A DNA stretch of 34,272 nucleotides from positions 1 to 34,272 of the forward strand of contig WAKA01000037.1 of the NCBI GenBank assembly GCA_015523565.1, read 5' to 3'. The notes beneath the pieces are model-generated. The model was not told where the DNA came from. It ran no database searches and was given only the letters and a program-made list of their open reading frames with translations. Positions within the stretch are counted from its first letter, which is position 1. Each line of letters starts with the position of its first letter. Origin of the DNA: Candidatus Heimdallarchaeota archaeon (lineage in GTDB: Archaea > Asgardarchaeota > Heimdallarchaeia > Heimdallarchaeales > Kariarchaeaceae). The position numbers and the translations under genes were made by a program. Positions 19,033 to 20,493 of this stretch are shown piece after piece.

Positions 19033-20493
19033 ATGAGTGAAGAAATATTTAGGCTCGATGGAAGAAAAGCTAATGAAATGCGGAACCTTGAAATCAAAGT
19101 AGGTGTCCTAGAGCAAGCAGACGGTTCCGCTAAAGTAATATTGGGTAAAAACATTGTCTTGGCAGCTGTAAATGGACCGAGGGAATTACATCCCAAACAT
19201 CTGGCTTTGTCACAAAAAGCCACAGTACGGGTTACATACAAAATGTTGCCATTTTCAGTAGAAAACAGAAAACATCCTGTTCCTTCAAGAAGGGAAAAAG
19301 AAATCTCCAAGGTTTTAAGTGAAGCTTTTGAAAGTGTTGTCTTGACACACCTTTTCCCAAGGTCCGCAATTGATGTACAAGTGCAAATGATACAAGCAGA
19401 TGGTGGATCCCGTACCGCCGCCGCCATTGCAACCAGTGCCGCTCTTGCAGACGCAGGCATCCCTATGAGAGGACTTATTGGGGGTATCGCATCTGGGATT
19501 TATGAAGAAAAATGTGTTCTTGATTTAAGCGGTATAGAAGACAATGTTGGAACTGGTGATTGTCCTATCCTTTATGCACCATCTCTAGACGAAGTTTCAC
19601 TTCTTCAACTTGATGGGAAATTTACTCCTGAACAATTCAAGACTTGTTTCAACATGTCAATTGAAGCAATCAAAGGCATAGTTGAAAAGCAGAAAGATGC
19701 TCTTGTTGAAAAATATGTAAAGATACGTGACGAAATCCTCTCCCATGAAATAGGGCATGAGGAAGTGACTTCGATTGAAGAGGTTTCTGATGTCACTGAA
19801 GCAAAACCACATACCACCACCCAAGAAGAAATTTTAGTGGAAGAGATTCCCATGGAGACGGAAACTGAAGAGGAAATTCTTGAAATCGAAGAGGAACCTC
19901 TCCCCGAACCCACTGTTTCTCCCCAATCTTTGGAATCAGCTTCTGCGGAAAAGCATGATGTGTTTGAACCAGCTAGACCTCTAATTATTAAAAATGAAGA
20001 ACCTAAAGAAGAATCACAAGTCTCAACTGATAATTTGGAGTCCCCTGTTGAACCTCAATCCGTATCATCCGAGTCCTCTTCCCCAGTTTTCATCCCTCCC
20101 GATATCTCAACTCCTCAAATGGCAGAAGAACAGGAAATGGCAGAAGAACAGGAAGTGTCTGAAACAACATCTTCAGAAGAACCAGAAATAGCTGTTGGGA
20201 CGGAAGAAAAACCAATCCCCGCAGATGCAATTGAAGAGGAGCCCTTGAAACCCGTAAGTGAAATAATCTACGAGAAAAACAAGGAATTGGAAAAGAAAGA
20301 GCAACCTCCTGCCAGAAGAGGCTTTTTCAGTTCCAGAATGGCAGAACTTCTCAAGAAACAGTATGTCTCTGAACAAAAAGAAGATGAGGAAACTCTTGAA
20401 GTGACTGTCGAAGAGGAAGACGAGGAAACCCCAAACAAGAACAAGTCTGATATTGAACGGGATCTTGAATTCCTTGACTATCTTGACGATTGA
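19033..20493 (+). CDS. rrp41: Exosome phosphorolytic subunit Rrp41 with long acidic C-terminal extension
   Basis: RLDGR..NE.R, ADGSA, GPRE.HP, RRE.EIS, ADGGSR and ED..G.GD.P in the first ~235 aa, followed by ~250 aa of Glu/Pro/Ser-rich sequence. Confidence 0.95.
   Translation: MSEEIFRLDGRKANEMRNLEIKVGVLEQADGSAKVILGKNIVLAAVNGPRELHPKHLALSQKATVRVTYKMLPFSVENRKHPVPSRREKEISKVLSEAFESVVLTHLFPRSAIDVQVQMIQADGGSRTAAAIATSAALADAGIPMRGLIGGIASGIYEEKCVLDLSGIEDNVGTGDCPILYAPSLDEVSLLQLDGKFTPEQFKTCFNMSIEAIKGIVEKQKDALVEKYVKIRDEILSHEIGHEEVTSIEEVSDVTEAKPHTTTQEEILVEEIPMETETEEEILEIEEEPLPEPTVSPQSLESASAEKHDVFEPARPLIIKNEEPKEESQVSTDNLESPVEPQSVSSESSSPVFIPPDISTPQMAEEQEMAEEQEVSETTSSEEPEIAVGTEEKPIPADAIEEEPLKPVSEIIYEKNKELEKKEQPPARRGFFSSRMAELLKKQYVSEQKEDEETLEVTVEEEDEETPNKNKSDIERDLEFLDYLDD
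20117..20154. repeat. Perfect 18-bp tandem duplication (AAATGGCAGAAGAACAGG x2) in the Rrp41 tail
   Basis: Directly visible. Encodes MAEEQE x2. Confidence 0.93.

Follow-up and report, generated by a model that had tools for sequence, protein, structure and literature searches.

The archaeal exosome subunit Rrp41 is known from compact chains. Those solved from S. solfataricus (2BR2, 2JE6, and 3L7Z), P. abyssi (2PNZ), A. fulgidus (2BA0), M. thermautotrophicus (2WNR), and T. acidophilum (8XIE) are 240 to 258 amino acids (aa) long. We analyzed a stretch of 34,272 nucleotides (the window; contig WAKA01000037.1, positions 1 to 34,272 of the forward strand) from a Candidatus Heimdallarchaeota archaeon of the Kariarchaeaceae (assembly GCA_015523565.1). 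Its rrp41 gene encodes 486 aa. A sequence-only reading of the window had described the part beyond the RNase PH domain as an acidic disordered tail, possibly a degradosome-like scaffold, on an enzyme whose characterized relatives are bare PH domains; the statement on the relatives holds for all solved structures. We propose that the tail is best explained as a selectively maintained C-terminal disordered region of two parts, a spacer of ~165 residues and a terminal module of ~80 residues.

Several described systems combine a nucleic acid enzyme or binding protein with such a region. Bacterial SSB has an oligomeric OB-fold core, an intrinsically disordered linker, and a conserved acidic C-terminal tip, DDDIPF. 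The Rrp41 studied here resembles SSB in its nucleic acid core (oligomeric, to go by homologous structures), in a low-complexity linker of variable length and sequence, and in a short, conserved motif of acidic and hydrophobic residues at the very C terminus. It differs in fold and substrate, which are unrelated, in its linker, which is strongly acidic where that of SSB is Gly/Gln/Pro-rich, and in its tip, which is a predicted helix of ~15 residues (RD[LI]E[YF]...) and not DDDIPF. We regard SSB as the closest architectural analogue, in the sense of a functional class and not of a homology family. The scaffold of RNase E, in the bacterial degradosome, binds RNA through arginine-rich segments and offers defined sites to RhlB, enolase, and PNPase. 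Here, too, a long intrinsically disordered region (IDR) sits on a ribonuclease, with short conserved microdomains and one candidate amphipathic helix, but the Rrp41 tail is a polyanion (30% D+E and 8% K+R) and its amphipathic helix is genus specific. Eukaryotic Rrp45/EXOSC9 likewise has a charged C-terminal extension on a subunit of the RNase PH-ring exosome. However, that subunit is the Rrp42-like and not the Rrp41-like paralogue, and we found no similarity to it (a profile of the module had no match in the PDB). Continuity with the eukaryotic tail is not indicated, because a sister family of the same class (f5) is tail-less. The closest precedent in the RNA world is Hfq, whose acidic C-terminal domain competes with nucleic acid for the core of the same protein, its tip mimicking nucleic acid and autoregulating RNA binding (PMC5606850, PMC6561178). 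In both cases, a ring-shaped RNA binder carries a disordered tail that has an acidic tip, but the tail of Hfq has ~30 to 40 aa, while that of Rrp41 has ~245 aa plus extra helices.

The Rrp41 core and the long reading frame

The enzyme part was delimited with Pfam, PDB alignments, and AlphaFold2 (AF2), which agree with the earlier placement of the domain end near residue 235 in an open reading frame (ORF) running to residue 486. RNase_PH (PF01138) matched residues 15 to 144 at 121.6 bits (cutoff, 25.5), and RNase_PH_C (PF03725) matched residues 148 to 211 at 39.8 bits (cutoff, 20.8). TIGR02065 (ECX1) aligned over model positions 5 to 230 of 230 with 282.3 bits. This is below its curated cutoff of 318.7, which is a curation limit and reflects no structural feature; divergent Asgard sequences score under it. 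The NCBIfam model of Rrp42 scored the product at 39 bits only. The best PDB match (E = 1e-69) spanned query residues 7 to 234, which is the whole core, and alignments with the solved chains stayed within residues 2 to 236, ending at 228 to 236. In the AF2 model, the core has a predicted local distance difference test score (pLDDT) of >90 and its last helix reaches residue 241. The parts of the gene are as follows.

19033-20493, plus strand: whole rrp41 gene, 486 codons and a TGA stop (ORF; TIGR02065 ECX1 is the best NCBIfam match)
19033-19755, plus strand: RNase PH catalytic core, residues 1 to 241 (Pfam, PDB alignment, AF2 pLDDT of >90)
19756-20244, plus strand: polyanionic, Pro/Ser/Thr-rich, hypervariable spacer, predicted to be disordered, residues 242 to 404 (AF2, genus alignment, Uversky boundary)
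19783-19815, plus strand: small island VSDVTEAKPHT, residues 251 to 261 (genus alignment; kept in 4 of 5 congeners)
20083-20118, plus strand: island PVFIPPDISTPQ, residues 351 to 362, pattern F-x-P-P-[DE]-I-x-x-P (genus alignment; kept in 4 of 5 congeners)
20117-20154, plus strand: exact 18-bp tandem duplication, MAEEQE twice (Tandem Repeats Finder [TRF] and repeat search)
20242-20298, plus strand: module helix 1, PLKPVSEIIYEKNKELEKK, residues 404 to 422 (predicted AF2 helix 408 to 422; 5 of 5 congeners)
20314-20361, plus strand: module motif A, RRGFFSSRMAELLKKQ, residues 428 to 443 (predicted AF2 helix 434 to 441; alignments A1 and A4)
20449-20490, plus strand: module motif B, the C-terminal acidic amphipathic tip DIERDLEFLDYLDD, residues 473 to 486, core RD[LI]E[YF] (predicted AF2 helix 470 to 485; alignments)

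With an offset of 12 to chain 2br2_B, residues R87, R127, D170, and D176 correspond to R99, R139, D182, and D188 of S. solfataricus, which we take to be the phosphate-binding and catalytic residues. Since these four residues are invariant among 52 relatives (alignments A1 and A5) and both Pfam domains are complete, the enzyme part looks fully functional. It shares with canonical archaeal Rrp41 the RNase PH and RNase PH_C fold, the same four active-site residues, an rrp4-rrp41-rrp42 operon, and a genome that also encodes Csl4 and DnaG. It departs from them in the long C-terminal region; the solved chains end ~2 to 10 residues from the point where the tail starts. Taken together, the domain and alignment data indicate that the product is a genuine, catalytically intact exosome Rrp41 of a Kariarchaeaceae (Heimdallarchaeia, Asgard) archaeon.

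A long frame could in principle arise from a frameshift, a chimera, or a stop missed near codon 240, and the genome is a metagenome-assembled genome of 233 contigs. However, the tail frame has no stops in 250 codons, while the other five frames have 4 to 27, and none of 5,000 dinucleotide-preserving shuffles stayed open (mean, 13.1 stops), so that the open-frame statistics speak against chance. A long rrp41 is kept in five congeneric sequences, with the C terminus conserved in one and the same frame, and the tailed architecture is found in at least five independent assemblies. Congeneric genomes G001 and G003 encode 464 and 480 aa, respectively; a 466-aa form (P0004) is present in at least two further NCBI assemblies; and a 458-aa form (P0003) comes from the Logan assembly of a separate run. 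In all four, rrp42 follows within 10 to 13 nucleotides and the gene order is unchanged. Because the long gene and its close rrp42 neighbor recur in this way, an assembly artefact or missed stop is effectively excluded on these comparisons, and we assign it a negligible probability.

The acidic spacer and the C-terminal module

The tail comprises ~245 to 250 aa, with 75 D/E against 20 K/R (net charge, −55; 30% D+E and 8% K+R) and a P/S/T content of 25%, as expected from its earlier description as Glu/Pro/Ser/Thr-rich. Charge and hydropathy place it on the disordered side of the Uversky boundary, and AF2 modeled residues 245 to 400 as coil with pLDDT values of 43 to 55; both agree with the earlier description of the tail as disordered. 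AF2 placed three short helices in the C-terminal module, at residues 408 to 422 (pLDDT, 70 to 76), 434 to 441 (57 to 66), and 470 to 485 (68 to 78). These values come from a run on a 52-row alignment; with 12 rows, the model was the same in outline but less confident. A halophile-type acidic proteome was ruled out as the source of the charge, the median ORF composition being 12.2% D+E versus 11.5% K+R.

The spacer and the module evolve at very different rates. Since synonymous divergence (dS) was saturated and often undefined (proportion of synonymous differences [pS] of 0.59 to 0.88 in all pairs), we compared relative nonsynonymous divergence (dN). Among the four closest congeners (pairs without the more distant G003), dN was 0.03 to 0.07 in the core, 0.08 to 0.21 in the last 82 residues, and 0.42 to 0.80 in the spacer, which is 10 to 17 times the core value; over all congener pairs, the spacer reached 0.42 to 1.06. 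Spacer identity to congeners was 19 to 36%, with many indels. The spacers of relatives consist of differing tandem peptide repeats, such as AKPSEVSxP, EPVSE, SEVEEV, KSETKKEKKVD, and KEVPKAEV, and in these repeats we recognize the signature of growth by slippage. In the window, the 18-bp duplication noted before is exact (TRF period of 18, 2.1 copies, 100% match). It sits inside a stretch of ~35 aa (residues 364 to 399) that is mostly absent from the other four congeners; on this alignment, it is thus a recent and private expansion.

Much of this could be expected if the tail were neutral low-complexity growth, i.e., slippage expansion at a permissive C terminus with no function of its own. 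Tails range from 14 to 251 aa within one order, the tandem repeats differ in almost every lineage, the insertion of ~35 aa with its exact duplication is private, and the sister family has no tail at all. However, 230 to 250 codons have stayed open in five diverged congeners with saturated dS, and the module and its terminal motif are conserved across genera at 60 to 65% core identity. We therefore consider neutral growth of the whole tail quite unlikely.

All five hydrophobic islands quoted in the sequence-only reading are present in the translation, and it had proposed to test whether the tail and such motifs are conserved while the spacers diverge. The outcome was positive for the tail and several of the motifs: PVSEIIYE, RRGFFSSRMAELLKK, and DIERDLEFLDYLDD are kept in 5 of 5 congeners and PVFIPP in 4 of 5, but DVFEPARPLII is not conserved. 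In the genus alignment, PLKPVSE[IV]IYEKNKELE, RRGFFSSRMAELLK, and the terminal [DE][IV]ERDLE[FY] are kept in 5 of 5 congeners, and VSDxxEAxPHT and LEVT in 4 of 5 (IDVT replaces the latter in G003). Across the family, the module can be aligned (alignments A1 and A4) and two motifs survive, A and B. In motif A, ...EL[KL] follows an aromatic pair; this genus has a form of its own, GFFSSRMAELLKK, most other genera have W[YF]x5-6 LKPM, and one clade has LKDLYKKIK. The consensus of motif B, the C-terminal tip, is [IVL]-x-R-D-[LI]-E-[YF] followed by acidic residues, with R476 and D477 at least 90% conserved in alignment A1 and R-D-x-E invariant in A4.

The position of motif B is nearly fixed. RD[LI]E[YF] was present in 36 of the 60 nearest long Rrp41 clusters (40 of 60 when the Ile/Leu aliphatic variant is counted), and in 35 of the 36 carriers it ends 3 to 7 residues before the C terminus. 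The C-terminal motif is conserved across most of the family, and the refuting outcome named in the sequence-only reading, tails absent or motif free in close relatives, did not arise. Within the genome, 2 of 2,888 crude ORFs have RD[LI]E[YF] in their last 45 residues, Rrp41 and a class I/II aminotransferase (L115, contig C77, 758-1858, minus strand) that ends in ...RIRDLEF, probably by coincidence.

The module appears to be confined to Rrp41. Its profile found two matches among 1.84 billion representative proteins, both Rrp41, and hence no portable cassette on other proteins in that set; against PDB sequences, it gave no match at E values up to 10. The tail as a whole matched no Pfam family at E values up to 10 (a 14-bit match to DUF6887 is noise) and had no usable match in a feature-based search of the ESM Atlas, and a word-index search among proteins of 267 to 851 aa returned three congeneric Rrp41s only. 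In a by-eye comparison with motifs of other systems, the PIP box, HbYX, the Atg8-interacting LIR, the Mtr4 arch-interacting LFxφD, and the ESCRT MIM were each rejected, as none fits the family consensus.

A different function for the module would be a membrane tether, in which a basic amphipathic helix, RRGFFSSRMAELLKK, anchors the exosome in the manner of RNase E segment A. A membrane location has been reported for the Sulfolobus exosome. Among the hydrophobic islands of the tail, RRGFFSSRMAELLKK alone is net basic, and AF2 places a helix at residues 434 to 441. However, the hydrophobic moment of residues 428 to 443 is modest (0.25), and the AF2 confidence for this helix is 57 to 66. Outside the genus, the aligned motif differs: W[YF]x5-6 LKPM contains Pro and Gly, often in acidic context, and other clades have LKDLYKKIK. 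For this reason, a membrane helix does not seem to be the conserved feature, and we think anchoring improbable.

Rrp41 tails in Asgard archaea and acidic tails in the genome

Every complete Rrp41 in 41 genomes of the same order had some C-terminal extension, of 14 to 251 aa. The groups compared were the following.

Own genus: tail of 229 to 251 aa, acidic, the longest among the tails compared
Rest of family f1: tail of 122 to 198 aa, acidic
Family f4: tail of ~190 to 200 aa, 43 to 50% D+E
g10, two closed genomes: tail of 150 to 170 aa, acidic
g11: tail of 14 to 110 aa, K/E/P/V octapeptide repeats

In g11 (L014 to L017, L019, L020, L022 to L026, L030, L033, and L035), tandem octapeptides (KEVPKAEV, EEPKK, etc.) make up nearly the whole tail; their copy number varies by species, and these tails are charge balanced, not acidic. 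Proteins of the Candidatus Kariarchaeum pelagius type (P0035, P0042 to P0055, and L027) have an acidic stretch, KSETKKEKKVD repeats, and a run of 8 to 10 lysines, and they stop right after the W-F motif (DSWFTKPEEKDKEEN), without the RD[LI]E[YF] tip. In the sister family f5, with genomes of 4 to 5.9 Mb, the frames are 258 to 279 aa and essentially tail-less.

Across 301 Asgard genomes, frames of at least 360 aa were found only in this order and in one other family (G139), whose Rrp41 of 373 aa has a real tail of 133 aa. Two giant frames were rejected, in G025 (L034, contig C8; 597 aa) and in G054 (L124, contig C97; 510 aa), where runs of N, standing for withheld or unassembled bases, join neighboring frames. 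Such false frames call for caution in automated length surveys. Tails in groups labeled Hermod-, Thor-, and Promethearchaeota have 27 to 100 aa and are short acidic or lysine-rich. Other Asgard lineages (P0101 to P0121 and L052 to L064) have lysine-rich, histone H1-like tails of 60 to 100 aa (K+R, 30 to 40%), opposite in charge to those of the Heimdall order, and some DPANN Iainarchaeota have short basic Rrp41 tails. To judge from this survey, an Rrp41 tail of variable charge is a recurrent Asgard feature, and the genus represented in the window stands at its long, acidic extreme. The tailed proteins themselves are already in public databases: dozens of Kariarchaeaceae or Heimdallarchaeota clusters of 330 to 480 aa are annotated merely as Rrp41 or hypothetical protein. 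Our searches found no paper on a tailed archaeal or Asgard Rrp41 in the literature library that was covered.

Acidic disordered stretches are also found elsewhere in the genome. Among the 2,888 crude ORFs, 79 have one of at least 60 aa and four have one of at least 200 aa, that of Rrp41 being the second longest. The longest, 880 aa, belongs to a 1,270-aa protein with bacterial TSP3 (thrombospondin type 3) repeats (L116, contig C125, 16603-20415, minus strand) that ends in DDFWDDDDFWDDI. Acidic C-terminal 40-mers occur in 16 ORFs and acidic N-terminal ones in 2. Among the proteins with acidic C-terminal tails, Pfam confirmed uL24, uS3, GyrA, and a DNA methylase; GyrB has a shorter acidic tail, and the list includes the canonical stalk proteins aP0/aP1 and an ESCRT-III protein. 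By eye, acidic C termini were also seen on an eL32-like protein, a KH-domain protein, and a winged-helix regulator. The following acidic-tailed ORFs lie outside the window; the tails on uL24, uS3, GyrB, GyrA, and the DNA methylase have 40 to 120 aa.

Contig C202, 37993-38550 (L107)
Contig C202, 40030-40704 (L108)
Contig C140, 3373-8182 (L109 and L110)
Contig C8, 9376-10470 (L113)
Contig C134, 5448-5960
Contig C202, 57017-57721
Contig C214, 4383-5144

Acidic tails at the C terminus are thus found on a minority of the proteins of this genome and are enriched among those that bind nucleic acids, which looks like a lineage tendency. The Rrp41 tail is less singular than the sequence-only reading implied, given how common Rrp41 tails are in Asgard archaea and given the acidic tails on other nucleic-acid-binding proteins here; the latter argue that part of the phenomenon is generic.

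One rival explanation is a sequence-independent polyanion. On this explanation, only charge and bulk matter, and the tail would serve as an RNA mimic, an electrostatic shield against nonspecific RNA capture, an entropic bristle, or an aid to solubility or assembly. Each tail carries a net charge of −55, an acidic composition (27 to 50% D+E) is kept across f1, f4, and g10 while the sequence is not, acidic ends are far more frequent at C termini than at N termini and most of the identified proteins bind nucleic acids, and Hfq provides a precedent (PMC5606850). What charge alone leaves unexplained is a motif held 3 to 7 residues from the C terminus in nearly all carriers and three conserved helices whose dN is 4 to 5 times below that of the spacer. 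Moreover, the tails of g11 and of other Asgard archaea are charge balanced or basic. We rank both the polyanion, which is unlikely as a full account, and neutral growth below the reading given in the next section, because both explain the spacer but not the tip.

The surrounding operon is compact. The gene order rrp4-rrp41-rrp42, with a separate Rrp42 paralogue, recurs in relatives, as does an rrp41-rrp42 junction of 3 to 13 nucleotides. In the window, the rrp41 stop codon (TGA, 20491-20493) is separated from the rrp42 ATG by 10 nucleotides, which confirms the tight packing noted before.

17578-18333, plus strand: SBDS (ORF in the window)
18330-19022, plus strand: rrp4, exosome cap subunit, 230 aa, tail-less (Pfam ECR1_N_2, RRP4_S1, and KH_6; ORF upstream of rrp41)
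20492-20506, plus strand: GAGGT (Shine-Dalgarno-like, overlapping the rrp41 stop) and the rrp42 ATG at 20504 (sequence)
20504-21325, plus strand: rrp42, 273 aa, tail-less (Pfam RNase_PH and RNase_PH_C)
21326-21571, minus strand: Pcc1-like
21568-22083, minus strand: Brix-like
22086-22397, minus strand: L37Ae
22440-22787, minus strand: prefoldin beta

The last four genes (21326-22787) are the second half of the usual exosome superoperon and converge on rrp42, the two stops abutting at 21325/21326; loci L104 to L106 have the same convergent arrangement. Elsewhere in the genome, Csl4 (a PF14382 match) and archaeal DnaG (NF003108, 386 bits) are present at ordinary length. A search with PF10447 for Csl4 gave no match, but its control was positive in only 1 of 14 genomes.

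A proposed tether with a docking module

The tail combines a spacer that is conserved in composition but free in sequence with a conserved module whose terminal motif is fixed in position, and it is this pattern that led us to a tethered short linear motif. The strongly acidic spacer, lacking sequence constraint and changing in length by replication slippage, would act as a flexible polyanionic tether. To judge from the homologous solved exosomes of archaea, each (Rrp41-Rrp42)3 ring would carry three tails, and each tether would present the tip and the helices as short linear motifs to a basic or hydrophobic surface. This surface could be the exosome's own RNA-binding cap or pore, where the tip would be in competition with RNA, like the acidic tails of SSB and Hfq. 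Alternatively, it could be that of a recruited partner, giving a hub function as for the SSB tip. Docking itself, its target, and an effect on RNA decay or tailing are what we infer from this architecture, and we give the tether-plus-docking-module mechanism, with either the own basic RNA path or an external partner as its target, a somewhat better than even chance.

The hub version can be stated more specifically. The three tips of a ring might bring in a helicase, another nuclease, or factors of ribosome biogenesis or translation, which would yield a cofactor-loaded "holo-exosome" in Heimdall-group archaea. Eukaryotic exosome cofactors do assemble via short linear motifs, but we know of no archaeal exosome that has been shown to use motif-based cofactor assembly, and we hold this version as a tentative possibility.

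The scaffold proposed in the sequence-only reading goes further, with three multivalent tails per ring that phase-separate or assemble enzymes like the C-terminal half of RNase E. Its structural premise stands, in that a long IDR with several conserved microdomains is carried by a ribonuclease, three per ring. However, the comparison with a degradosome is still an analogy. The tail, a strong polyanion, is poor in aromatic and arginine stickers (K+R, 8%); its arginines include two isolated RR dipeptides and no arginine-rich segment of the RNA-binding kind; no partner was found; and the module turned up in none of the other protein families searched. A condensate or degradosome scaffold is therefore as improbable to us as the membrane tether.

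Several observations weigh against the tether with a docking module. No binding partner or docking surface was identified for the tail. The module is confined to one family, and other families of the order end otherwise, in TLEI[AT]ELED... or in the K/E/P/V octapeptide repeats. Even nearby, the Kariarchaeum pelagius-type genus has no motif B and f5 has no tail, which implies that the function of the tip is dispensable or replaceable. The charge of the tail also varies among Asgard archaea, from acidic here through polyampholytic in g11 to lysine-rich in others, and much of the tail may belong to the lineage-wide tendency toward acidic tails and not to a device specific to the exosome. Finally, with dS saturated, the case for purifying selection on the module is built on relative dN and motif counts and not on dN/dS.

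To our knowledge, the archaeal exosome has been studied biochemically and structurally only with tail-less Rrp41. Should the conserved tip dock on the cap or a partner, it would represent the first regulatory or recruiting element to be built into the catalytic subunit of an archaeal exosome. The Heimdallarchaeia are widely regarded as the class closest to eukaryotes, in which the exosome is governed by motif-mediated cofactor binding. The value of the finding is limited by the family-restricted module and by similar acidic tails that suggest a partly generic phenomenon. The same enzyme carries, in neighboring lineages, tails of 0 to 250 aa and of opposite charges, and this constitutes a natural experiment.

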